NCBI RefSeq assembly: GCF_051058965.1 | Contig: NZ_CP183924.1 | Source of the DNA: Corallococcus exiguus | GTDB lineage: Bacteria; Myxococcota; Myxococcia; Myxococcales; Myxococcaceae | Direction: 5' to 3' (one strand) | DNA: 64,000 nucleotides | In this document: positions 11,695 to 24,066 of the stretch, in pieces | Layout of the letters: the number at the start of each line of letters is the position of its first letter | Position numbering within the stretch: position 1 is the stretch's first letter | Translations under genes and position numbers: made by a program | The notes under the pieces: generated by a model | Seen by the model: the letters and a program-made list of their open reading frames with translations, nothing else | The model's database searches: none | Told to the model about the DNA's origin: nothing

Positions 11695-12171
11695 TCACCC
11701 GCTCGCAGGGCGACGGGGCAGCACCAGCTTCGCGATGAGCACCTGCAGCACGTCGCCCTTCTGGTTGCGAGTTTCGCTGCGCACCGTGGCGATGCCCCGG
11801 TCCGGCCGCGTGCGGGAGGGAATGATCTCCAGCACCTCGCTCTCCACCTGGAGGATGTCTCCCGGGCGCGTGGGCCGGGGCCAGCGGATGTCGCCGCCCG
11901 CCCCCACGATGCCTCCCTTGAAGGGCAGACCGCTCTGGACGTTGAGCTTCATGGTGAGCGCCGCCGTGTGCCAGCCGCTCGCCGCCAGCCCTTCGAACAG
12001 CGTGTCCTTCGCCGCGGCGTCGTCCAGATGGAAGCCCTGCGGGTCGAACTCCCTCGCGAAGGCGATGATCTGCGCCGCGTCCAGCGCGTGCGTGTCACTG
12101 AAGAACTTCTGCCCCACGGACAGGTCGTCCAGGAACAACTCCTGGCGCCCGCCCTCTGCCGTCGATGCCAT
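11695..12171 (-). CDS. MaoC-like (R)-specific enoyl-CoA hydratase/dehydratase (hotdog fold)
   Basis: MASTAEGGRQELFLDDLSVGQKF...DPQGFHLD...GIVGAGGD. This has the hotdog-fold, MaoC-dehydratase pattern. It lies upstream of, and co-directional with, the desaturase. Confidence 0.75.
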   Translation of the reverse strand: MASTAEGGRQELFLDDLSVGQKFFSDTHALDAAQIIAFAREFDPQGFHLDDAAAKDTLFEGLAASGWHTAALTMKLNVQSGLPFKGGIVGAGGDIRWPRPTRPGDILQVESEVLEIIPSRTRPDRGIATVRSETRNQKGDVLQVLIAKLVLPRRPASG

Positions 12172-12383
12172 GCCCGCGTCCCTCCGGGACGGATGCCCGC
12201 CCACATTATGAGCATAATCCGTCCATGACCGGGGCGCTCGTCCGGGTGCCACTGTTCTCCAGGTCGCACGGGGGGCCGCCCCTCGGGTCGCTCCGGATGC
12301 CGAACGTTGAACATCGCGCGCCCGCACCGGCGGACACGCGTCGAAACAACCAGTGCCCACGGCCCGTGGAGTATGAGCAGTGC

Positions 12384-13781
12384 GTGCCGCTCTCCTGCTT
12401 TCGCCGTCACCTGTCCGTCCTCGCCTTGGCCCTGACGGGCCTGGCGGCCCCCGTCGCCCACGCCGACGAGGACACGCCCGTGTCCCCCATCGACCGCTCC
12501 CAGGTCGGAGAGGTGACGGTGGAGGGCGCGAACAAGACGACGTCCGGGACGGTGCGCTCGTTCGGACAGGTGGGCGTGGGCGACGAGGTGGACAGCGAGG
12601 AACTGGAGAAGGTGGAGCGGCGCCTGTTGGCCACCGGCCTCTTCCAGGAGGTCCGTGTCGGCACCGAGCCGATGCCCGACGGGCGCGTGCGGCTGGTGCT
12701 GCGGGTGAAGGACAAGGCGTCGTGGGTGGTGGCCCCCACGGTGGCGCTGTCCTCCGCGAACACCGGCGGCGGGCTGCTCTACGCGGAGAACAACCTGGGC
12801 GGCCGCGCGAAGAAGTTCGCCGTCGCGGCGCAGGTGAGCACCGGCGAGAGCGGCCTGTACGTGGGCTTCCTGGATCCGATCCTCTTCGGCCTGCCGCAGC
12901 TCAAGTTCAGCCTGGAGGGACAGCTGAAGAGCGACCGCGTGGACGAGTACAGCATGGACGCCAGTGAGGACGACCCGGAGATCCTCCGGCGGACGCGCTT
13001 CAACTCCGCGTCCATCAGCTCCGAACTGGGCTTCATCCTCTTCGAGCGCGTGCGCGCGGCGGCGAAGTACCGCCTGGCCAGCATCGACGCGAAGACTCCG
13101 GATCCGAAGATGCCGGTGACGGTGCCGCCGTTCTCCACCGGCCCCGCCATGCGAGACACGTCGCTGCGCCTCATGGTGGGCCTGGACTCGCGCCAGACGC
13201 TGCACGCGGTGACGGAGGGGCTCAACCTGGAGGCCTCCTACGAGGTGTCCACCCCGGGCGTGTGGAGCGAGTTCGACTACCGCAAGTTCGGCCTCCTCTA
13301 TCGCCACGGCATCCGCTTCTTCACGGAGAACAACCTGGTGCTGCGCGGGGAGCTGGTGCTGGGCAGGCACCTGCCCTTCCAACAGGAGCTGGTGATGGGC
13401 GGCAACACGCTGCGCGGCTTCCAGTACCGGCAGTTCCGCGGCGACAGCCGGCTCACCTTCACGGCCGAGTACCACTTCCCCCTCTTCAAGGTGCAGTCGC
13501 TGGCCTTCCGGGGCGTGGCCTTCTCCGACACGGGTGCCATCGCGTGGTGGGATGTGCCCGAGGACGGAAACCTGCGCGACGCCAACGGACGCGTCATCCG
13601 CAACTACCTGCGGGAGACGATCACGGGCCAGAACGCCGTCACCGTGGCCCAGGGCGTGGGCGGGGGCCTGCGGCTGTACCTCAACAACGTCGTGCTGCCC
13701 CTGTTGGGCGTGGACGTCGCCTACGCCGTCAACTCCGGCCAGGTGCGCTTCTACCTCGTGGCCGGAGTCACGCCCTCCTGA
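12384..13781 (+). CDS. Omp85/TamA-family (surface antigen D15-like) outer-membrane protein with a single POTRA domain
   Basis: A signal peptide (RRHLSVLALALTGLAAPVAHA), a POTRA-like segment (VTVEGANKTTSGTVRSFGQVGVGDEVDSEELEKVERRLLATGLFQEVRV), and a C-terminal region with alternating hydrophobic beta-strand pattern. The start is uncertain: GTG at 12366 or 12384. Confidence 0.6.
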   Translation: MPLSCFRRHLSVLALALTGLAAPVAHADEDTPVSPIDRSQVGEVTVEGANKTTSGTVRSFGQVGVGDEVDSEELEKVERRLLATGLFQEVRVGTEPMPDGRVRLVLRVKDKASWVVAPTVALSSANTGGGLLYAENNLGGRAKKFAVAAQVSTGESGLYVGFLDPILFGLPQLKFSLEGQLKSDRVDEYSMDASEDDPEILRRTRFNSASISSELGFILFERVRAAAKYRLASIDAKTPDPKMPVTVPPFSTGPAMRDTSLRLMVGLDSRQTLHAVTEGLNLEASYEVSTPGVWSEFDYRKFGLLYRHGIRFFTENNLVLRGELVLGRHLPFQQELVMGGNTLRGFQYRQFRGDSRLTFTAEYHFPLFKVQSLAFRGVAFSDTGAIAWWDVPEDGNLRDANGRVIRNYLRETITGQNAVTVAQGVGGGLRLYLNNVVLPLLGVDVAYAVNSGQVRFYLVAGVTPS

Positions 13782-13790
13782 TGCGGCTTG

Positions 13791-14747
13791 CTAGCCGGCG
13801 CGGGCAGCGTCCGCGTCCGGCTCAGGCTCCGGAGGCGGCACCACGCCGGGCCATGCCTCCGGCGGCAGGTCCAGGCTGAACGGCGGTGACTCGCCGCGCA
13901 CCGTCCACCAGAGCGCCTTGTCCGCGCACAGCGCCTGCGCGATGCGGCCGGACGTCGTGCGGACGCGCTCCACGACGGCCTGGTGCTCCTCGGGCGTCTG
14001 CGCCTCCAGCATCGCGACGACGTTGTCCCAGACGCGCTGCCGCCAGACGATGAGCATCCGCATCACCGCCCGCTCCACCACGGGGCGGCTGAAGGGCACG
14101 CGCAGGAGCAGCCGCGTGGACGCGCACCGGTAGCGCTCCGCGAGCAGGTCCACGCAGTCCGGGATGCACGAGCGGAGGATCTCGTTCACGTGGAAGTAGT
14201 CATGCCGGTAGCGCGCCATCCGGCGTGCATCCGCCGGCGGCGACTGGTGGGCGATGTTGTCGTAGACGACCATTCCCAGGTCGTGGTTGATGTGGGCGCT
14301 CACGCCCAGCAGCGCGTCCTGGTACGGCTGCGTGAGCCCCTGGGCCGGGTAGTGCGTCGCGAAGCGCCACGCCGCGGTGGGCAGCGGCAGGTTCTTCAGC
14401 GAGTCGCGCACCGCGATGAGCGCCTCCTCCGCGAAGCGGCCCGTCAGGTGAGACAGCCACTCGGGTTCGAGGAAGCCGCCCGCGTCATCGCGGCTCAGCA
14501 GGTGGACGACCTTCCGAGTGACGATGGCGTAGATGTCCAGGAAGATGGCGCGTGAGTCATCCCGCGCGTTCAGCCGGCCGAGGATCTTCTCCAGACCCTC
14601 CAGCGCCTCCTCCGCGTTGACCGGATTCCAGAGCACGTCATCCAACCGGATGGGCCCCTGCGCGTCCGGGGCCTTTGTCTCGTGGAGGTGAAGCGACTGG
14701 GAACGCTGCGACCGGTGAGCCGAGGGGGAAGCCGGTGAAACATTCAT
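13791..14747 (-). CDS. hypothetical cytoplasmic protein
   Basis: About 318 aa from MNVSPASPSAHRS. GC3 is high. I recognise no motif. Confidence 0.5.
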   Translation of the reverse strand: MNVSPASPSAHRSQRSQSLHLHETKAPDAQGPIRLDDVLWNPVNAEEALEGLEKILGRLNARDDSRAIFLDIYAIVTRKVVHLLSRDDAGGFLEPEWLSHLTGRFAEEALIAVRDSLKNLPLPTAAWRFATHYPAQGLTQPYQDALLGVSAHINHDLGMVVYDNIAHQSPPADARRMARYRHDYFHVNEILRSCIPDCVDLLAERYRCASTRLLLRVPFSRPVVERAVMRMLIVWRQRVWDNVVAMLEAQTPEEHQAVVERVRTTSGRIAQALCADKALWWTVRGESPPFSLDLPPEAWPGVVPPPEPEPDADAARAG

Positions 14748-14905
14748 GAAATGACGCTCCGCGGGGTGGGGGAACGACTTCACATGAAAGCTTATCTGAA
14801 CCGGTCCCTCGTGTGATGACACCCGCTCAGAAGAAATTCGATGTTTCACGAGGCCCCCCGCGTGTTGACACTCACGCGGGGGCCTTTGTCACATCGATGT
14901 CAAAC

Positions 14906-16159
14906 TCAGGGCGCGGTGCCTTCACTCACGGTGCCGCCCGTCTTGCCCAGGACGTACCTGGCGAGCGCGAGGGCGTTGTTCTCGTCGACGAGGGACTCGT
15001 AGGTGGGCATCTGCGTGCCGGGCTTGAAGGTCTCCGGGTTGCGGATCCACTTCGCCACTTCCTCCGGAGCCTTGCCCTTGGCGCCCTGGAGCTTGGCCTC
15101 GTAGGCCTTGCCGGGGGCGTGGCAGGTCGCGCAGCCCAGCGAGCTGAACATCTTCTCCGGGTCGCTGGAGGGCTCCGCCTTGGGGCGGCCACCGGCGGGC
15201 GGCGGCACGACCTTGTCGTTGGGCTTCATGGAGCGCAGGAAGGTGTAGAGGGCGGAGAGCTCCACGGCGTCCGCGTAGCGGTACTTGGGCATGGGCGCGC
15301 GCAGGATGTAGCCCCCGGGCGTGATGCCCGTGACCATGGCGTGATTGAACTCGTCCAGCGTCCACTTGCCGATGCCGGCCGTCTCGCTGGGGGTGATGTT
15401 GGGCGACAGCAGCTTGCCCTCGCCGCCCAGCGGCACCATGTCGAACTCGAAGCCGCCGCTCAGCAGCGTCTCCGGGTGCTGCATCTTCACCGCGCTGCTC
15501 TCCAGGCCGGGCGAGTGGCAGAAGGTGCAGTCGTAGACGCTGGAGGCCAGGTAGCGGCCGTACTCCACGGAGTCCGCCGCCTTCGCGGGCACGGGCACCG
15601 GCTCCGTGCGGCCCTTGTCGTTGATGCCCATGGCGAACGCGAACGCCATCCGGCCCGGGGGCGTCAGCTCGGAGCGCGGCGGCTGCTGCTTCTCCGGCGC
15701 GAAGTCCGGGTGCCCGGAGCGCATGAAGCCGATGACCGCCGCGATGTCCTTGTCACCCATGTTGGGGAACGGGGGCATGGGGCGGAAGTGGTGGTTCTTG
15801 TCGATGCCGTTGATCACCAGGCGGGCGATCTCCTGGTCCGTCCAGGCGCCCACGCCCTTCTCCATGTCGGAGGTGATGTTCGCCGAGTAGAACGTGCCCA
15901 GTTCGGCCGGGAAGTCGAACATCCGGCCGCCCACGGGCTTGGTGTTGCCTCCGCCCGCGTGACACTCGCCACACACCGCGCGGAACACCTGCTCACCGCG
16001 GGCAATGCCCTCAGGAGAGCTGTCCCGCGTGATGTTGGGCAGCGCGACATAGTCGTACGTCTTGTTGATCTTGTGGGTGGCCACGCCCATGGCGGAACCC
16101 GCGCCAATCAGGACCAGGGCGACCAACGCACCAATGGCGATCAGGATCTTCTTCATCAT
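14906..16159 (-). CDS. membrane-anchored tri-haem c-type cytochrome (alcohol/gluconate-dehydrogenase cytochrome-subunit-like)
   Basis: Three CXXCH motifs: CGECH, CTFCH and CATCH. There is an N-terminal TM helix (MMKKILIAIGALVALVLIGAG), and GGAG lies upstream of the ATG. Confidence 0.8.
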   Translation of the reverse strand: MMKKILIAIGALVALVLIGAGSAMGVATHKINKTYDYVALPNITRDSSPEGIARGEQVFRAVCGECHAGGGNTKPVGGRMFDFPAELGTFYSANITSDMEKGVGAWTDQEIARLVINGIDKNHHFRPMPPFPNMGDKDIAAVIGFMRSGHPDFAPEKQQPPRSELTPPGRMAFAFAMGINDKGRTEPVPVPAKAADSVEYGRYLASSVYDCTFCHSPGLESSAVKMQHPETLLSGGFEFDMVPLGGEGKLLSPNITPSETAGIGKWTLDEFNHAMVTGITPGGYILRAPMPKYRYADAVELSALYTFLRSMKPNDKVVPPPAGGRPKAEPSSDPEKMFSSLGCATCHAPGKAYEAKLQGAKGKAPEEVAKWIRNPETFKPGTQMPTYESLVDENNALALARYVLGKTGGTVSEGTAP

Positions 16160-16259
16160 GGGGAACGCTTCTCCGGATGAACGGGGACGGCACACGGCGC
16201 TCCGTCTGCTCCACGGGGGAGGAGTGGACAGAGCGCCGGTGTTGGGACGGGTGAGGCGG

Positions 16260-17390
16260 CTACTGGCCCGGCAGACAGGTGCTGGGCGGGGGAATCGAAG
16301 GCGTCGTCGAGGGCGTCTTGCTGTACATCTGGAGGCCAGCGAACGTCACGCTGCCCGGGGCCACGGGGAGATCCAGCGGCTGGAGCACCCACGGGCGCCC
16401 TTCCGGGTCGCTGGTGGTGGAGTCCACCGCTTCGTAGTGGACCACCGGCGGCGGCCCCATCGGCGGCAGCGGCAGCGGCGGGTGGACGACAGCGACGACG
16501 CCCAGGGAGCTGTTCGGCGCCGGCGGCCCCGGCGGGATGAAGAAGCCGCGCGTGGACTGGAACGGCGCCAGCGGCGGCGGCAGCGCGCCTGGGGGCGCCC
16601 ACTCGATGTTCAGCACGCGGCCCGCGCTGGCCACCACGGTGGTGTTCGCAGCTGGCACGCGGAAGACGGGGAAGCCCGGCCGGTACAGCCAGAACACCGT
16701 CACGCCGCCGAAGCGGGCCGGGTTGAGCAGGTCCGCCACCGTGGTGAGCGTGCCCTCGGTGGTCAGGTACTTCGCGACCGCCTCCAGGATGCCCTTGTCG
16801 CTCATCTGCAGGGCCTCCAGGCCCACGCAGGCGCTGTGCGCGGGCACCACCGGCCGCACCGTCAGCGTGGGCACGTAGTTGCCCTCCGGCACGGGAGGCA
16901 GCGGCGGCAGCGGCGGCCCCGCAGGGGCATTATTGGCCAGCGTGCCGCTCGGCACCCCTGGCAACGCCGACGACAGCACGAAGAACGGCGCGCCCCGGCG
17001 CGTGGGCACCTTGTCCAGCGTCCAGACGCCATGGGCGTCCGATGCAGCGAACACGCCGCTCTCCGCGAGCACCTGGCCCGTGGCGCTGTCCAGCAGGGTG
17101 ATGGGCGCGTTCTGAACCACCGCGCGCTGCAGGAGCGGGCTGAACTCCGCGTACAGCGGCGGCAGCGGGCACTGCGCGGGCGGCGGCGCGCAGGCCGCCA
17201 GGTTGAAGAAGTAGGCCTCCGGGTCCACGGTGAAGCCGTTCAGCCGGGAGGTGAGGCCCTCCGGCTCGCGGTTCTCATACGTGGGGCGCGGCGTGAAGGT
17301 CGACGCCGAGGGGTTGTTGGAGGATTCCTGGCAGCCGGCGTTCAGCAGGGCCGCGCCGAGGAGCGTTCCGACGAAGAGAGCTCTTTGCAT
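16260..17390 (-). CDS. Pro-rich lipoprotein
   Basis: A lipoprotein signal peptide with lipobox (LLNAGC) and PPLPPLPP tracts. It sits between the two cytochrome genes. Confidence 0.6.
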   Translation of the reverse strand: MQRALFVGTLLGAALLNAGCQESSNNPSASTFTPRPTYENREPEGLTSRLNGFTVDPEAYFFNLAACAPPPAQCPLPPLYAEFSPLLQRAVVQNAPITLLDSATGQVLAESGVFAASDAHGVWTLDKVPTRRGAPFFVLSSALPGVPSGTLANNAPAGPPLPPLPPVPEGNYVPTLTVRPVVPAHSACVGLEALQMSDKGILEAVAKYLTTEGTLTTVADLLNPARFGGVTVFWLYRPGFPVFRVPAANTTVVASAGRVLNIEWAPPGALPPPLAPFQSTRGFFIPPGPPAPNSSLGVVAVVHPPLPLPPMGPPPVVHYEAVDSTTSDPEGRPWVLQPLDLPVAPGSVTFAGLQMYSKTPSTTPSIPPPSTCLPGQ

Positions 17391-17405
17391 GGCGGGTTGC
17401 TTCCC

Positions 17406-19337
17406 CTACTTCGCGGGGAGGATGTGGCTGGCGGGAAGCTGATCGCCGCCGTGACAGGTCTGCGCGCAGTTGCCGAACCGGCTGGGCGTGCCGCGCTGGT
17501 TGAAGGCGATCTGGAAGAACTCGTCCCCGTGCTGGGAGATGTGGCACGAGCCGCACAGCGACAGGCTGGGACGCTCCGTGCTCTTGCGCGTCAGGTGGCA
17601 CACGGTGCAGTCCGCGCGGTTCGCCGGGTACGTGGGCGAGTTCATGTGGATGCGGTGCACCATCTCCTGCGTGCGGCCCACCGTGTCCGTGTCGTAGTGG
17701 TGGCAGACCTTGCAGCTCTCGATGTGGTCCACCGACAGGCCGTGGCGCAGGTTGTCCAGCGACAGCACGCCGCGGTGGCAGAGCTGGCAGTTGCCCACGT
17801 TGCCCGGGTACGTCGTCGACTCGTCCTGGCCCACCTGGAAGAAGAAGGGGTTCAGCTTCGCGACGCGCTCGCCCATGGCTCCACGGTTGAACTTCACCAG
17901 TGCCACGTAGGTGCCCGGCTTCGCGTTCGCGGGCAGCGAGAACGTCTGGCGGGTGGGCCACTTGTAGTCGATGAGGCCCGGCGTCAGCCCCGTGAGCGTG
18001 GCGTCATCCAGCGTCGCGAACGGGAACGGCTTGGCGAAGAACTGGGGCTTGTCGCTGGGGTTGCCCAGGACCTGGAGATCCTGGAGGGGGCCCGCGATGG
18101 CCACGTTGGAGATGGAGTCGTTCTCCGTGACGGACGCGATGACGCCGGGGACGAACGTCACGAGGCCGTTGGACTGGCCGCTGATGATCTCCCGCGCGCT
18201 GGGCAACAGGTCGCGCGAGTGCAGGTGGGCGCCCGCGCTGTCGCGCAGGTCCACGTAGACGCTCACGTCCTCGCCGGGCTTGTAGAAGCTGCCCTCCTTC
18301 GGGGGCGAGAACACCAGCCGCGAGTCCAGGCCCGGGTTGCACTGCACCGGGTTGCCGGCGTCGTCGGTGCAGGTGGACGGGCGATCATCCGGGATGACGT
18401 ACGTGACGGGGAAGAAGAACGGCTTGTCCGGCAGCTGGCTCCAGGTGGCCTTGAGCGCGCCGGGACCGGACAGGCGCGGCACGCGCAGCACCTTGAAGGG
18501 GTTGGTGCTGCCCACCCAGTCCACGCGCGCGATGGTGCGGGTGATGGCGCTCTGGTCCAGACCACCCGCGAAGCCCGTCACGGTGCCCGGGTCCTTGTCG
18601 CCGGGGAAGCGCGGCGGCTTCAGGTTCTCCGACCGCCAGGAGAAGCGGCTGTGGCCGGCGTAGGGCGAGGAGGCCAGCAGCTCCGAGCGCAGATACGTCT
18701 GGCTCGCGCGCGGGGTGCCCGACTCGTCCAGCACCTCCACGGTGATGGTGTCGTCCTTCACCTTCTGCCAGTTCGCGTTGCCGAACTGCACCTCGCGGGT
18801 CCAGCAGTCCTCCACCGCGCCCGCGAGGCTGTAGAAGCTCCACTCGTCCGGGCCCTGGTTGACGTTGGTCCAGTCCAGTCCCGAGAAGACGGACTGGTTC
18901 TTGATCCACGCCAGCGCGGCCGTCTGGTCGTTGGGATTGTTGTGCTGGTTGACCACGGTCTCCGACACGGAGAACTGGTTCAGGAAGTACTGGGTGTCCG
19001 ACAGGATCTGCAGCGTCCCCGTGGGAGGCGACTGCGTCAGCGGGTTCTGCGCGAGCGGCGTGACGCACACGTCCGGGTAGGTCACCGGGAGGTCGTTGTG
19101 CCTCAACGGCACGCCGTTCTTCGCCACCATCTGCCCGTTGGGCAGGAAGGCGCAGCCGTTGATGTACTGGAGGCTCAGCCGGATCGCGCCGGAGTTGAGG
19201 CCCTGGTACGGGTCGAACCGCTTGGCACCGCGGCCTGTGGTGGACCCCTCGTCATCAGTGACCTTGAGGAGGTTGCAGGACAGCAGGGGCACCAGCAGGG
19301 CGCACCACGCGCTCTTCAACAGGATTGAGCGATTCAT
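17406..19337 (-). CDS. lipoprotein with a C-terminal multihaem c-type cytochrome domain (4 CXXCH + 1 CX3CH)
   Basis: The signal peptide and lipobox is MNRSILLKSAWCALLVPLLSC. An N-terminal domain of about 480 aa is of unknown function. The C-terminus carries the haem motifs CQLCH, CKVCH, CTVCH, CGSCH and CAQTCH. Confidence 0.75.
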   Translation of the reverse strand: MNRSILLKSAWCALLVPLLSCNLLKVTDDEGSTTGRGAKRFDPYQGLNSGAIRLSLQYINGCAFLPNGQMVAKNGVPLRHNDLPVTYPDVCVTPLAQNPLTQSPPTGTLQILSDTQYFLNQFSVSETVVNQHNNPNDQTAALAWIKNQSVFSGLDWTNVNQGPDEWSFYSLAGAVEDCWTREVQFGNANWQKVKDDTITVEVLDESGTPRASQTYLRSELLASSPYAGHSRFSWRSENLKPPRFPGDKDPGTVTGFAGGLDQSAITRTIARVDWVGSTNPFKVLRVPRLSGPGALKATWSQLPDKPFFFPVTYVIPDDRPSTCTDDAGNPVQCNPGLDSRLVFSPPKEGSFYKPGEDVSVYVDLRDSAGAHLHSRDLLPSAREIISGQSNGLVTFVPGVIASVTENDSISNVAIAGPLQDLQVLGNPSDKPQFFAKPFPFATLDDATLTGLTPGLIDYKWPTRQTFSLPANAKPGTYVALVKFNRGAMGERVAKLNPFFFQVGQDESTTYPGNVGNCQLCHRGVLSLDNLRHGLSVDHIESCKVCHHYDTDTVGRTQEMVHRIHMNSPTYPANRADCTVCHLTRKSTERPSLSLCGSCHISQHGDEFFQIAFNQRGTPSRFGNCAQTCHGGDQLPASHILPAK

Positions 19338-19571
19338 GGAAGACGAGGCCGGAGGGAGTCGGGGGGAGGAAAAGGAGCAGGTGTCCTCACGCGCGGGCCC
19401 ACGCGACCCACCCTTCCCGACGCCGCCAGCGCTCCGCGACGCGGAGATGGTGAGGCCTGGTAAGGGTTGGGAGGAGAACACCTCATCGGTTCAAACTGAC
19501 CACATTATGAGAGTCCGCGCAATTCGTGGACTTCAGATCGCACAGAGGGAAGCACGCGCCCGCGCGCCGGA

Positions 19572-20498
19572 TCAGAGGCTCAGGCCCGCGGACAGGAGCA
19601 GCGCGAACACCAGCCCGAGCGCGGCAGTCTTCCCCAGGTGTGGGTTGAGCGCGCTGCCGTCCTCGCGCCAGATGGCGCGGATCTGCCGCACCGCGAGCGG
19701 CACGGCGACCAGGGTGAGGAGCCAGGCCCAGCGGTGCTCCGGCAGCACCGCCCAGGCAATCACTGGGAGCACGAACGCGCCCCCTACCGCCAGCGTGTAT
19801 TCCCACTGCCCGAAGCGCTGGCCGAAGCGCACCACCAGCGTGCGCTTGCCGGCGATCACGTCCGTCTTGCGGTCGCGCAGGTTGTTCACCGCGAGGATGC
19901 CCGCGGAGAAGAGCCCCATGGACAGCCCCGCCACCAGCACGGCCGGTGTGACGTGGTGCGTGAGCACCACATAGCTGCCGCTCACCCCCAGCAGCCCGAA
20001 GATGATCAGCACCAGCACGTCCCCCAGGCCCAGGTACCCCAGGGGCACGGGGCCCGCGGAGTAGAAGACCGCGCCCGCCAGGCAGAAGGCGCCGCCCGCG
20101 AACACCGGCCAGCCCTCCGCCTGGGTCAGCAGCAGCAGCGCGAGCGAGGATCCGGTGAACGCCAGCGCCGCGGCCGTCGCCACCTCGCGCGCCGTGAGCC
20201 AGCCCTTCTGCGTGACGCGCGCGGGCCCCAGACGCGCCTCGGTGTCCGCGCCCCGTTCGAAGTCCGCGTAGTCGTTCACCAGGTTGCTGACGATCTGCAT
20301 GAGCACGAAGCCCACCAGGAACGTCAGCGCCGGCGCGAGCCGCCAGTGGCCCTCCGCGTTCGCGAACGCCCAGCCCAGCAGCGTGGGGGCGACGGAGGCG
20401 GTCAGCGTCTTGGGCCGCAGCGCGAGCCACCAGACGCGGGCCAGAGGGGGTCTTGATTCAAGCGCGACACTCGACGACGGGAGACTCGGAGTGGCCAT
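19572..20498 (-). CDS. menA: 1,4-dihydroxy-2-naphthoate octaprenyltransferase (UbiA superfamily)
   Basis: The UbiA prenyltransferase motif NDYADFERGAD, multiple TM helices, and MenA-like length and topology. Confidence 0.8.
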   Translation of the reverse strand: MATPSLPSSSVALESRPPLARVWWLALRPKTLTASVAPTLLGWAFANAEGHWRLAPALTFLVGFVLMQIVSNLVNDYADFERGADTEARLGPARVTQKGWLTAREVATAAALAFTGSSLALLLLTQAEGWPVFAGGAFCLAGAVFYSAGPVPLGYLGLGDVLVLIIFGLLGVSGSYVVLTHHVTPAVLVAGLSMGLFSAGILAVNNLRDRKTDVIAGKRTLVVRFGQRFGQWEYTLAVGGAFVLPVIAWAVLPEHRWAWLLTLVAVPLAVRQIRAIWREDGSALNPHLGKTAALGLVFALLLSAGLSL

Positions 20499-20716: not shown

Positions 20717-21406
20717 ATGAACTCGACCTCCTTCCCTTCCTCCCCTTCCCTTTCGCGCCGGAGCGCCGTGACGCTGCTGGGCGCGTTCGTGCTCGCGCTC
20801 GCCGGGTGTCATCCGGTGCTCTCCATCGAGGATGCGCGCTCGCGCTCCAACGGTTCGGAGGTGGTGGTGGAGGGCGCGGTGACCGTGGCGCCCGGCACGT
20901 TCTCCTCCGCCCTGGGCGATGAGGGCTTCGCCATCCAGGACGACACCGGCGGCATCTACGTCAAGCTGGAGGAGAAGCTGTCCTTCGGGCTGGGGGCCCG
21001 CGTGCGCGTCTCCGGCACTCTGGACGAGCAGAACATGCTGCGCATCCTCAAGAGCGTGCCCGAGGACGTGGACCTGAAGTCGGGCACGGAGCAGGTGTCG
21101 CCCAAGGAAGTGACCACCGGCGGCGTGAACGAGTCCGTGGAGGGCCAGCTCATCCGCGCGAGCGGCGCCATCACCCAGGCTTTCCAGGACGACTCGCCCT
21201 ACGGCTACAAGCTCTACATCGACGACGGCACCGGCGAGGTGCAGGTGTTCGTCCACGTCTCCGCCGGCTTCGACAAGACCGCGCTCCAGGCCCTCACCGT
21301 GGGACAGCGCATCGCCGTGGTGGGGCTGGCCGCGCAGTATGAGACGACCTACGAGGTGGCGCCCCGCATGCCGGGCGACCTCTCGGTGCAGAGTGCCGCG
21401 CCCTGA
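20717..21406 (+). CDS. lipoprotein (unknown function)
   Basis: Lipobox LALAGC after a signal peptide. 229 aa. GC3 is high. Confidence 0.6.
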   Translation: MNSTSFPSSPSLSRRSAVTLLGAFVLALAGCHPVLSIEDARSRSNGSEVVVEGAVTVAPGTFSSALGDEGFAIQDDTGGIYVKLEEKLSFGLGARVRVSGTLDEQNMLRILKSVPEDVDLKSGTEQVSPKEVTTGGVNESVEGQLIRASGAITQAFQDDSPYGYKLYIDDGTGEVQVFVHVSAGFDKTALQALTVGQRIAVVGLAAQYETTYEVAPRMPGDLSVQSAAP

Positions 21407-21615
21407 CAGCAGCCAGGCGCCCCTGGGTATGTAGCACCCCAGACGCCAGACGCAGGGTCCGCGGGCCGTTGGCTTTCGTGCAGGGCTCCACATGTGTGCC
21501 TGGGGGCGGATGCACGAAAGCCAACGTGCGCCTGACAAGGGGACAGGCGGGCAGGTTCCAAGCGTACGCGCAGTGCCAATCCATCCGAGTCCCTGGCGGA
21601 CGAACGAGGGCTGGC

Positions 21616-24066
21616 ATGGACGGACTTCGAGGAACAGCAGCGGTCTTGCTTGCGTGCGCGGGCCTGTGGGCCCCGGGCACCGCGTGGGCACAGGCGCCCG
21701 ACGAGGACGACTCCGGCGACGTGATGTCGGAGGAGAAGCTGGAGGCCCTGCTCGACACGCCGACGGCGCAGCCCTCGCAGGACGAGGTGACGGCGGAGGC
21801 CTTCGGGCCGGAGCGGCTTTCGACCTACTTCGCGGAAGGCCTGCTGGCGAAGGCGAAGGCGGAGTTCGACCGCGGCCGGTACAAGTCCGCGCGGGCGCTG
21901 CTCGCGACGGAGTCTCCCCCTTCCCTCCCCGGCCGCTTCCTCCAGGCGCAGAGCGCGTTCCTCGCGCGGGACTTCACGACCGCCGCCGCGGAGTTCACCG
22001 CGCTCGCGGAGGACTACGTCCCGCTGCGCGACCACTGCCTGATGAAGGCCGCGCAGTCGCACGAACGGCTGCGCAAGCCGCTGCGCGCGGCGGAGCAGTA
22101 TGGCCTGGTGAGCCCGGGCTCACCGCTCTACCCGGAGGCCCGCTTCACCATGGCGCGCGTGCTCAAGCGCCAGCTGAAGATCCCCGAGGCGCTGGCCGCG
22201 CTCCAGGAGTTCATCGACAGCCGGCAGGCTCGCGGGCCGGACGCGCTGCGGATGAAGGCGCTGCTCGCGTACTGCGACCTGGCGCGCGCGGCGGGGCAGT
22301 ACAACGCCGAGCACCGCGCGCTGCTGGAGGTCTGGGCCACCGCACCCCTGTCGCCGGAGGCGGATCGCGCGAAGGCCCTGCTGCGCGACCTGCCCCTGCC
22401 CATGAAGTGGCGCGTGCGCCGCGCGGAGGCGCTGGTGGAGCTGCACCAGAACGTCCCGGCCATGAACATGCTGGCCCGCTCGGGGCCTCGCACGGAGCTC
22501 CCGGACGAGCTGGCCTGCCGCGCCCAGCTCACCCTGGGCCGCGCCCTGCGCAAGGAGCGTCAGCACCGCCGCGCCATCCAGGTGCTGGAGCCGGTGGCGC
22601 GCGAGTGCCAGTCGCCGGAGCAGCGGCCGCAGGCGCTCTACCTGCTCGCCTATTCGCAGTCCGTGGTGCAGCCCGAAGCGGCGGTGGAGACGTACGCCAC
22701 GCTGGCGCGGGACTACCCGGAGCACGGCTACGCGGACGACGCGCTGTTCTTCGAGGCCTGGACGCAGCAGCGCCTGGGCCGCGCGGACGAGGCGCTGGAG
22801 AACTACGAGGCGCTCGCGAAGCGCTACCCCGCCGGCAACTTCGCCGCCGAGGCCCTCTTCCGAGCCTTCTGGCTGCACCAGCGCAAGGGCGAGACGCAGC
22901 AGGGCCTGGCGTCGCTGATGTCGGTGGAGCAGCTGCCGGAGGCCGCGCGCACCGACGACGCCCTCTGGCGCGCGCGCTACTGGCAGGCGCGAGTCCAGGA
23001 GAACGCTGGCGCGCTGGACCCGGCGCTCGCGCGCTACGAGCTCATCGCCACCGAGCGGCCCACGGCCTGGTACGGGCTGCTGTCCCGCACGCGGCTGGCG
23101 CAGCACGCACCGGAGCGGCTGGCGCGGTTGACGGAAACCGCCGCGCAACCGGCCGTGGCGAAGACCTTGAACACCGCCGCGCCGGCCAACGACGAGGTCT
23201 GGCCCCTGCCCCCGGGCCCGCTCCAGAAGGATGCGCGCTTCGCGGCGGGCGTGGAGCTCTTGCGCCTGGGACAGCCGGGCGTGGTGGAGGAGCTGCTCGC
23301 GGTGGACACGCGCGGCCTGGCGGAAGCGCCCGCGCGGCTGCTCTACCAGACCATGCGCCGCACCGGCCGCGGCCGGGCCACGCGGCAGGTGGCCCGCGTG
23401 ACGCTGCGCCAGGAGGCGGCCGGGCCGCTCAGCGCCGCGTCCCGTCCGGTGTGGGAGGCGACGTGGCCGCTCGCGTTCCGGCCGCTCATCCAGAGCTATT
23501 CGAAGGCCGCTCGCGTGGACCCCGACCTCCTGCAGGGCCTCATCCGCGAGGAGAGCCGGTTCAACCCGCGCGCGCGTTCGTCCACCGGCGCGCTGGGGCT
23601 CGCGCAGCTCATGCCCACGACGGCGCAGGCGGTGGCGGACTCGCTCAAGCTGGCGTCGTTCGAGATGTCGTCGCTGCTCCAGCCCGCGCCGAACATCCGG
23701 CTGGGGGCGGCGTACCTGGGCTCGCTGCTCAAGCACTTCGACGGCAACCCCGCCTACGCGGTGGCCGCCTACAACGCAGGCCCCAATGCGGTGGAGCGCT
23801 GGCGCAAGGCCCTGCCCCAGGCGGAGCTGGACGAGTGGGTGGAGCACATCGCCTTCGACGAGACCCGCGACTACGTGAAGCGCGTGCTCAGCAGCTACAG
23901 CGCCTACAAGCTGCTCTACGCCAACGAAGTCCCCGCCTCCTTCGCGCCGGCCCGCAAGGCGCCGCTGGAGGCCGCGCGCACGCCCACGGTGAGCCCTGCG
24001 TCGGGTGTGGGCGGCAGCGGCCGGAATGCGGCGACGCCCACCTCCTCCGTCTCCGGGAGACGCTAG
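21616..24066 (+). CDS. soluble lytic murein transglycosylase (Slt70-like: TPR/superhelical N-domain + SLT catalytic domain)
   Basis: A signal peptide (MDGLRGTAAVLLACAGLWAPGTAWAQ) and the SLT motifs EESRFNP, LGLAQLMPTTA and AYNAGPNAV. Confidence 0.8.
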   Translation: MDGLRGTAAVLLACAGLWAPGTAWAQAPDEDDSGDVMSEEKLEALLDTPTAQPSQDEVTAEAFGPERLSTYFAEGLLAKAKAEFDRGRYKSARALLATESPPSLPGRFLQAQSAFLARDFTTAAAEFTALAEDYVPLRDHCLMKAAQSHERLRKPLRAAEQYGLVSPGSPLYPEARFTMARVLKRQLKIPEALAALQEFIDSRQARGPDALRMKALLAYCDLARAAGQYNAEHRALLEVWATAPLSPEADRAKALLRDLPLPMKWRVRRAEALVELHQNVPAMNMLARSGPRTELPDELACRAQLTLGRALRKERQHRRAIQVLEPVARECQSPEQRPQALYLLAYSQSVVQPEAAVETYATLARDYPEHGYADDALFFEAWTQQRLGRADEALENYEALAKRYPAGNFAAEALFRAFWLHQRKGETQQGLASLMSVEQLPEAARTDDALWRARYWQARVQENAGALDPALARYELIATERPTAWYGLLSRTRLAQHAPERLARLTETAAQPAVAKTLNTAAPANDEVWPLPPGPLQKDARFAAGVELLRLGQPGVVEELLAVDTRGLAEAPARLLYQTMRRTGRGRATRQVARVTLRQEAAGPLSAASRPVWEATWPLAFRPLIQSYSKAARVDPDLLQGLIREESRFNPRARSSTGALGLAQLMPTTAQAVADSLKLASFEMSSLLQPAPNIRLGAAYLGSLLKHFDGNPAYAVAAYNAGPNAVERWRKALPQAELDEWVEHIAFDETRDYVKRVLSSYSAYKLLYANEVPASFAPARKAPLEAARTPTVSPASGVGGSGRNAATPTSSVSGRR

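Follow-up and report, generated by a model that had tools for sequence, protein, structure and literature searches.

Multihaem lipoproteins of the MtrC/OmcA type are a hallmark of metal-respiring anaerobes. In Shewanella, MtrC, OmcA, MtrF and UndA are surface-exposed and built of alternating beta-barrel and pentahaem domains, two of each, with 10-11 haems in total, and the MtrCAB conduit further includes an MtrB-type porin and an MtrA-type multihaem protein. The trihaem cytochrome subunits of the membrane-bound glucose (GDH), fructose (FDH) and alcohol (ADH) dehydrogenases pass electrons to the membrane quinone, while the Listeria locus for flavin-based extracellular electron transfer comprises dmkA, a menA-like gene, and the surface redox lipoprotein PplA. 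Here, a gene cluster from Corallococcus exiguus is described that lies in a stretch of 64,000 nucleotides with 70% G+C (hereafter the window) and encodes a multihaem lipoprotein (MHC), a proline-rich lipoprotein (PRL) and a trihaem cytochrome c (cytC3), next to menA. With moderate confidence, MHC, PRL and cytC3 are taken to form a lineage-specific envelope electron-transfer module of the Myxococcia. The features of the locus are the following:

19572-20498, minus strand: menA, encoding 1,4-dihydroxy-2-naphthoate (DHNA) polyprenyltransferase of 308 amino acids (PF01040, TIGR00751, exact match to C. exiguus MenA)
19338-19530, minus strand: conserved non-coding leader 5' of the MHC gene; it probably combines a promoter with a structured 5' untranslated region
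17406-19337, minus strand: MHC, a 643-amino-acid lipoprotein in which a tether is followed by beta-sandwich domains and, at the C-terminus, a pentahaem domain
17451-17789, minus strand: pentahaem region of MHC, with the motifs CQLCH, CKVCH, CTVCH, CGSCH and CAQTCH and a PF22113 match at residues 515-631
16260-17390, minus strand: PRL, a 376-amino-acid Pro-rich, haem-free lipoprotein and obligate neighbour of MHC
14906-16159, minus strand: cytC3, a class I cytochrome c of 417 amino acids with three haems and a hydrophobic N-terminal anchor or signal (PF13442, PF00034)
14852-14884, minus strand: GC-rich hairpin, likely the transcript end, 22 nt past the cytC3 stop

The tight pairing of MHC and PRL, the presence of a cytochrome c partner, the menaquinone (men) genes that flank the cassette, the conserved leader with its hairpin and the lack of any enzyme fold support such a module. 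The analysis established the gene content, cofactor motifs, folds, conservation and synteny of the locus; from these sequence features we infer the interaction of the proteins, menaquinone as their proximal partner, their location, the direction of electron flow and every other function proposed for the cassette.

The four open reading frames menA, MHC, PRL and cytC3 run in the same direction on the minus strand, with a G+C content at third codon positions of 0.93-0.95, as expected from codon bias in the right frame. Deposited C. exiguus proteins match the 308-, 643-, 376- and 417-amino-acid products exactly, and the homologues from other Corallococcus species are 84-94% identical to the window proteins. 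An earlier reading of the window (the original prediction) had reported four co-directional genes with these identities, lipoprotein status and haem counts, and the reading frames, codon bias, motifs and family matches all bear this out. It had also treated the four genes as one cassette. This gene order is real in C. exiguus, but a synteny comparison of 47 genome loci, with men genes counted within 10 kb, indicates that the conserved core is the MHC-PRL pair and not the four-gene set: PRL adjoins MHC in 45 loci (immediately downstream in 44 and immediately upstream in one), while a di- or trihaem cytochrome c gene is adjacent in 21.

The MHC product starts with MNRSILL and has a lipoprotein signal peptide with the lipobox LLSC, the cysteine of which (Cys21) is near-invariant among the homologues. 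Its haem motifs are found at residues 517 (CQLCH), 542 (CKVCH), 577 (CTVCH), 595 (CGSCH) and 624 (CAQTCH). The number and sequence of these C-terminal motifs are as originally reported, but they span residues 517-629 and thus occupy the last ~130 residues of the protein rather than 170. No change is seen in any of the five motifs, or in His 532, 561, 564, 603 and 638, among 31 homologues with identities as low as 39%. As judged from these aligned proteins, the conservation of the motifs is far beyond chance, and the invariant motifs and candidate distal histidines fit five bis-His electron-transfer haems.

Three weak lines of evidence converge on the MtrC group. PF22113, which describes domains II/IV of MtrC/MtrF, matches the window MHC with 22.2 bits (gathering threshold 30) over profile positions 7-165 of 176, and it matches 30 of the 31 family members at E<0.01, with a best value of 2e-6 (below or near threshold). 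A search of the Protein Data Bank with the MHC family profile returned MtrF as the single match (E 0.0045). This suggests that the MHC haem domain is a remote, single-pentahaem relative of MtrC/OmcA. Nonetheless, MHC is not a member of the decahaem MtrC/OmcA family, for which TIGR03507 gives 15 bits against a cut-off of 209. With one pentahaem domain and 5 haems, it departs from the plan of two pentahaem and two beta-barrel domains, and unlike the Shewanella proteins it has one CX3CH motif and a family-specific N-terminal beta region of ~300 amino acids. The mtrA/mtrB partners of the MtrC group are missing here, the obligate partner being instead the haem-free lipoprotein PRL, and the hosts are Myxococcia. 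What is new is an MtrC-like multihaem lipoprotein that differs in architecture, partner and host physiology and that belongs to an uncharacterised family from one lineage.

The large N-terminal domain of MHC had been considered as a possible catalytic fold, which the structure prediction contradicts. In the AlphaFold 2 (AF2) model, which has a predicted local distance difference test score (pLDDT) of 76 and a predicted template modelling score of 0.76, residues 22-48 form a disordered tether and residues from about 50 to 505 are all-beta, with pLDDT of 85-95. This region is predicted to consist of stacked immunoglobulin (Ig)/macroglobulin-like beta-sandwiches, in agreement with Foldseek. The check for a known enzyme in this domain that the original prediction had proposed, by hidden Markov model and structure searches, matched none, and the Foldseek and family-profile searches found no enzyme fold in MHC.

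Two further features of MHC are conserved. In the flexible tether, the pattern E-x4-GRGA-x2-FDPY (residues 30-44; window 19206-19250, minus strand) is invariant in all 31 homologues, which suggests a docking or sorting peptide. Directly before the last beta-sandwich, which itself precedes the haem domain, there is an invariant cysteine pair, C323-x9-C333 (window 18339-18371, minus strand), and a second invariant pair is formed by C62/C91. The short C323-C333 loop is reminiscent of the redox-active CX8C of MtrC domain III.

PRL contains 16.5% proline, has the lipobox LNAGC with Cys20 and carries no haem motif. The fold search for this protein returned only transthyretin/CnaB/pilin-like beta-sandwiches, and no known enzyme or other known fold was matched beyond these. 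Lipoproteins of Myxococcus xanthus with Lys at position +2 are retained in the inner membrane and those with Ala at +7 directed to the matrix, the remainder going to the outer membrane (PMC3222651). The mature N-termini of MHC (CNLLKVT) and PRL (CQESSNN) have neither +2 Lys nor +7 Ala and, given that both sorting signals are missing, the two proteins are predicted at the outer membrane, in either leaflet. MHC would then be the distal carrier of the module, with a bis-His pentahaem domain set on non-catalytic beta-sandwiches, and PRL its structural or docking partner.

The original prediction had likened the locus to a conduit for extracellular electron transfer. In a true conduit of this kind, electrons from menaquinol would pass through cytC3 and across the outer membrane to MHC and PRL at the surface, where minerals, humics or prey components would be reduced or oxidised. 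Such a role would be in line with the remote homology of MHC to the surface-exposed MtrC, OmcA, MtrF and UndA, with the adhesin- or pilin-like beta-sandwich folds of MHC and PRL, which are typical for surface proteins, and with the linkage to men genes; nevertheless, the comparison with MtrCAB makes it unlikely. Neither an MtrB-type porin nor an MtrA-type periplasmic multihaem protein is encoded within 10 kb of the cassette, whether in the window or in any clade represented among the 47 loci, and with the porin and the periplasmic decahaem partner absent, a trans-outer-membrane conduit is not supported. The sole barrel gene near the cassette, of the Omp85/POTRA type, lies on the opposite strand and is syntenic within Corallococcus only. 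Furthermore, five haems are too few to span an outer membrane, and the hosts are aerobic predators.

The third protein of the proposed module, cytC3, starts with MMKKIL and has an N-terminal hydrophobic segment of ~23 residues. It had been described as anchored by a transmembrane segment; this segment is present, but it may be either a signal anchor or a cleavable signal peptide. Haem motifs are found at residues 63 (CGECH), 211 (CTFCH) and 343 (CATCH), each with a downstream PMP or QMP that provides a candidate Met ligand. Among solved structures, the best relatives are the beta subunit of the FAD-dependent GDH (8hdd_B, 1.4e-22, residues 39-348 aligned), the FDH cytochrome subunit (7w2j_C, 1e-18) and subunit II of the pyrroloquinoline quinone (PQQ)-dependent ADH (8gy2_B, 2e-14). 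This confirms its assignment to the trihaem dehydrogenase cytochrome-subunit type: cytC3 is composed of three class I haem c domains that are homologous to those of the ADH/GDH/FDH subunits and follow the same order. Unlike these subunits, it has an N-terminal anchor or signal and no catalytic partner genes nearby; indeed, no gene for a catalytic (PQQ or FAD) dehydrogenase subunit is found in the cluster, here or in the related loci. As the locus lacks a gene for a catalytic subunit, the module most likely serves to carry electrons to or from a redox-active protein or substrate, located at the outer membrane or within the periplasm, and it is unlikely that it catalyses a defined chemical reaction. 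Within it, cytC3, tethered to the membrane and facing the periplasm, would exchange electrons with the menaquinone pool or the respiratory chain. The cytochrome of the Hyalangium cassette is 43% identical to cytC3. An apparent 'Rosetta-stone' fusion of cytC3-type and MtrC-type domains (P0355/P0356) was rejected, since its PF22113 matches are CXXCH fragments of ~20 residues; hhalign gives a probability of 1% between these proteins and the MHC family.

The assignment of menA is firm, with 192.6 bits against TIGR00751 (cut-off 102.15, equivalog level) and a PF01040 UbiA match at 1.6e-32; no further men gene is found within the window. Of the 47 loci, 14 have men genes on the flanks of the cassette; they belong to three subclades and show four arrangements: menA>MHC>PRL>cytC3 in Corallococcus; menF>cytC>MHC>PRL<SnoaL, then menD>H>A>C>E, in Hyalangium versicolor and a Myxococcaceae metagenome-assembled genome (MAG); <menA cytC>MHC>PRL>menF in one MAG; and <SnoaL cytC>MHC>PRL>menF in another. 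The original suggestion of a link to menaquinone thus gains support, because in Hyalangium and the related MAGs the cassette lies within or beside the men cluster in differing arrangements. The men-linked subclades are interleaved with loci that have no men genes, and the simplest history would be ancestral embedding with repeated loss, or paralogy. A linkage that outlasts rearrangement argues, with moderate force, for a functional connection with menaquinone, and the embedding in men clusters leads to a testable hypothesis on the electron source, M. xanthus being genetically tractable. In H. versicolor (L001:1-6536), genes for DAHP synthase, shikimate kinase, chorismate synthase, DHQ synthase and EPSP synthase adjoin the men cluster, so that the shikimate and men genes make up a chorismate-to-menaquinone supercluster with the cytochrome cassette mid-way.

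Several observations weigh against a menaquinone-linked module, and some of them speak for ordinary periplasmic c-type carriers, which would receive or deliver electrons through bc1 or alternative complex III (ACIII) and the terminal oxidases, the adjacency of menA being accidental. In 33 of the 47 loci there is no men gene within 10 kb, and in C. exiguus menA is set apart from the cassette by 234 nt with a conserved leader of their own. The third domain of cytC3 is also similar to the cytochrome c domain in subunit II of caa3 oxidase (2yev_B, E 1e-4), and homologues of cytC3 stand alone in Sandaracinus, Archangium gephyra and a Myxococcales MAG. We nonetheless regard such carriers as improbable, given that men genes abut the cassette in four arrangements and three subclades, a pattern for which either selection or very slow decay would seem to be needed, and that the solved structures closest to cytC3 are those of quinone-reactive subunits. 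Should they be periplasmic carriers only, about 60 clusters of 'hypothetical proteins' would still gain a useful annotation from the analysis. Further points weigh against the proposed module. A single ancestral arrangement could underlie the men-linked loci, and the C-terminal portion of the dehydrogenase subunits finds no counterpart in cytC3. The helical haem domain of MHC is poorly modelled (pLDDT 50-65), and all MtrC-like signals are under their curated thresholds (22 against 30 for PF22113 and 15 against 209 for TIGR03507). The Myxococcus loci pair MHC with a dihaem lipoprotein cytochrome and not with a membrane-anchored trihaem protein, which means that direct quinone contact is no constant feature. 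Moreover, MXAN_1610-1613 are absent from the searchable literature and from two searchable sets of proteome supplementary files.

The spacing of the genes gives an indication of how they are transcribed. The gaps between MHC and PRL (15 nt) and between PRL and cytC3 (100 nt) are followed downstream of cytC3 by the hairpin at 14852-14884, which folds as RNA with -31.7 kcal/mol (z = -4.7), a stability reached by 0 of 200 shuffled sequences. The menA-MHC gap measures 234 nt and contains a near-invariant leader of ~190 nt, which argues for a separate cassette promoter. MHC, PRL and cytC3 are therefore probably one predicted transcription unit with its own promoter and leader, and menA probably a separate one; its grouping with the cassette genes in the original prediction holds for direction but not, it appears, for the promoter.

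In nine Corallococcus-type loci, the ~190 nt 5' of the MHC start are near-invariant, while the stretch right after the menA stop is variable. Insertions and deletions of 1 nt and 3 nt between species exclude a coding capacity of the leader. RNAalifold gives a consensus structure of -59 kcal/mol with 56 pairs, four of them with compensatory changes; in one hairpin, CTCCGCG..CGCGGAG is compensated to CTTCGCG..CGCGAAG in two species. A 23-mer core of the leader occurs once in the window and otherwise in Corallococcus-type loci only. A CATAAT element resembling a -10 box is present in the leader, and a scan with the sigma-70 consensus did not find a promoter. A known riboswitch, for example of the GEMM type that controls Geobacter cytochromes, was considered and rejected, since the leader has no Rfam match at the gathering threshold; a scan relaxed to E up to 10 gave noise only. 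A longer MHC reading frame starting at GTG 19481 (691 amino acids) was likewise discarded because insertions and deletions between species break the frame upstream and the deposited protein has 643 amino acids.

The MHC family is confined to a narrow group of hosts. A word-indexed search found 58 MHC homologues, of which the named ones all come from Corallococcus, Hyalangium, Archangium or Myxococcaceae MAGs. When 1.84 billion representatives were searched exhaustively with the family profile, 185 matches reached an E value of 1e-3 or better, some 14 of them full-length, and the named members of this family are all from Myxococcota and annotated as hypothetical or as generic cytochromes. In M. 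xanthus DK1622 the homologue is MXAN_1612, annotated as hypothetical. The presence of the family across the genera Myxococcus, Corallococcus, Archangium and Hyalangium suggests that this well-studied model group has an envelope redox activity that has so far received no attention, and places a single-pentahaem relative of MtrC/OmcA in aerobic soil predators.

The genes next to the MHC-PRL pair vary with the clade. In Myxococcus and Citreicoccus the order is a Rieske/VanA_C-type oxygenase, a dihaem cytochrome c lipoprotein (lipobox LSAC), MHC and PRL, while Archangium and Vitiosangium have no cytochrome c at the locus and the Rieske gene stands immediately before MHC. The Rieske-type layout is seen at L036:7899-9886 (M. 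xanthus) and in L034, L038, L039, L051 and L028-L033, and PmbA/TldD genes follow these loci on the opposite strand. The Rieske/VanA-type oxygenase of Myxococcus and Archangium was considered as the catalytic partner but is not supported, since it has no signal peptide and is hence cytoplasmic.

These neighbours bear on a non-respiratory role, in which MHC and PRL would serve the redox chemistry of secondary metabolites or xenobiotics, or act as an envelope haem sensor, peroxidase or iron store. Distant MHC paralogues do occur among genes for nonribosomal peptide and polyketide synthases (NRPS/PKS), P450, luciferase-like monooxygenase and Rieske/VanA-type oxygenase. Second-tier relatives, which share only the last beta domain and the haem domain and whose named members are 'cytochrome c' proteins of Stigmatella and Pendulispora, are stand-alone genes in unrelated contexts. 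However, such contexts are not kept across clades, the Rieske protein without a signal peptide would belong to another compartment, and the invariant candidate distal His for all five haems points to electron transfer rather than catalysis, so that a role of this type is considered very unlikely. On the metagenome contig L004 (6930-15861; L005 covers the same region), two MHC paralogues are found in one locus, the first following FtsX-FtsX-LolA-like (TP_0789) and dihaem cytochrome c genes and the second divergent from a PRL-like gene. Both lie among NRPS/PKS, luciferase-like monooxygenase and thioesterase genes.

With the Listeria locus, the envelope electron-transfer module proposed here shares the genomic logic only, namely a DHNA prenyltransferase gene beside a gene for an extracytoplasmic redox lipoprotein, and homology is not claimed. 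The redox lipoprotein uses haem c in place of flavin, Ndh2, EetA/B and FmnB are all missing, and menA passes the housekeeping menA model and in Hyalangium is part of a full men operon. A porin-independent exchange of electrons between the menaquinone pool and the exterior may be envisaged, with MHC and PRL at the surface fed by the di- or trihaem cytochrome or by DHNA-type naphthoquinone shuttles that stem from the men pathway. Although it would account for the repeated embedding of the cassette in men clusters, this is a speculative and quite unlikely extension.

Other genes surround the cluster in the window. Just past the cassette lie an Omp85/POTRA outer-membrane protein gene (12165-13781, plus strand) and a DUF5995 gene (13791-14849, minus strand), which are syntenic within Corallococcus only and so probably unrelated to the cassette. 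On the other side, a lipoprotein with DUF5818/OB-fold matches (20717-21406, plus strand) is divergent from menA, and it is followed by an SLT-domain/TPR lytic transglycosylase (21469-24066); this order is kept in most Corallococcus loci.

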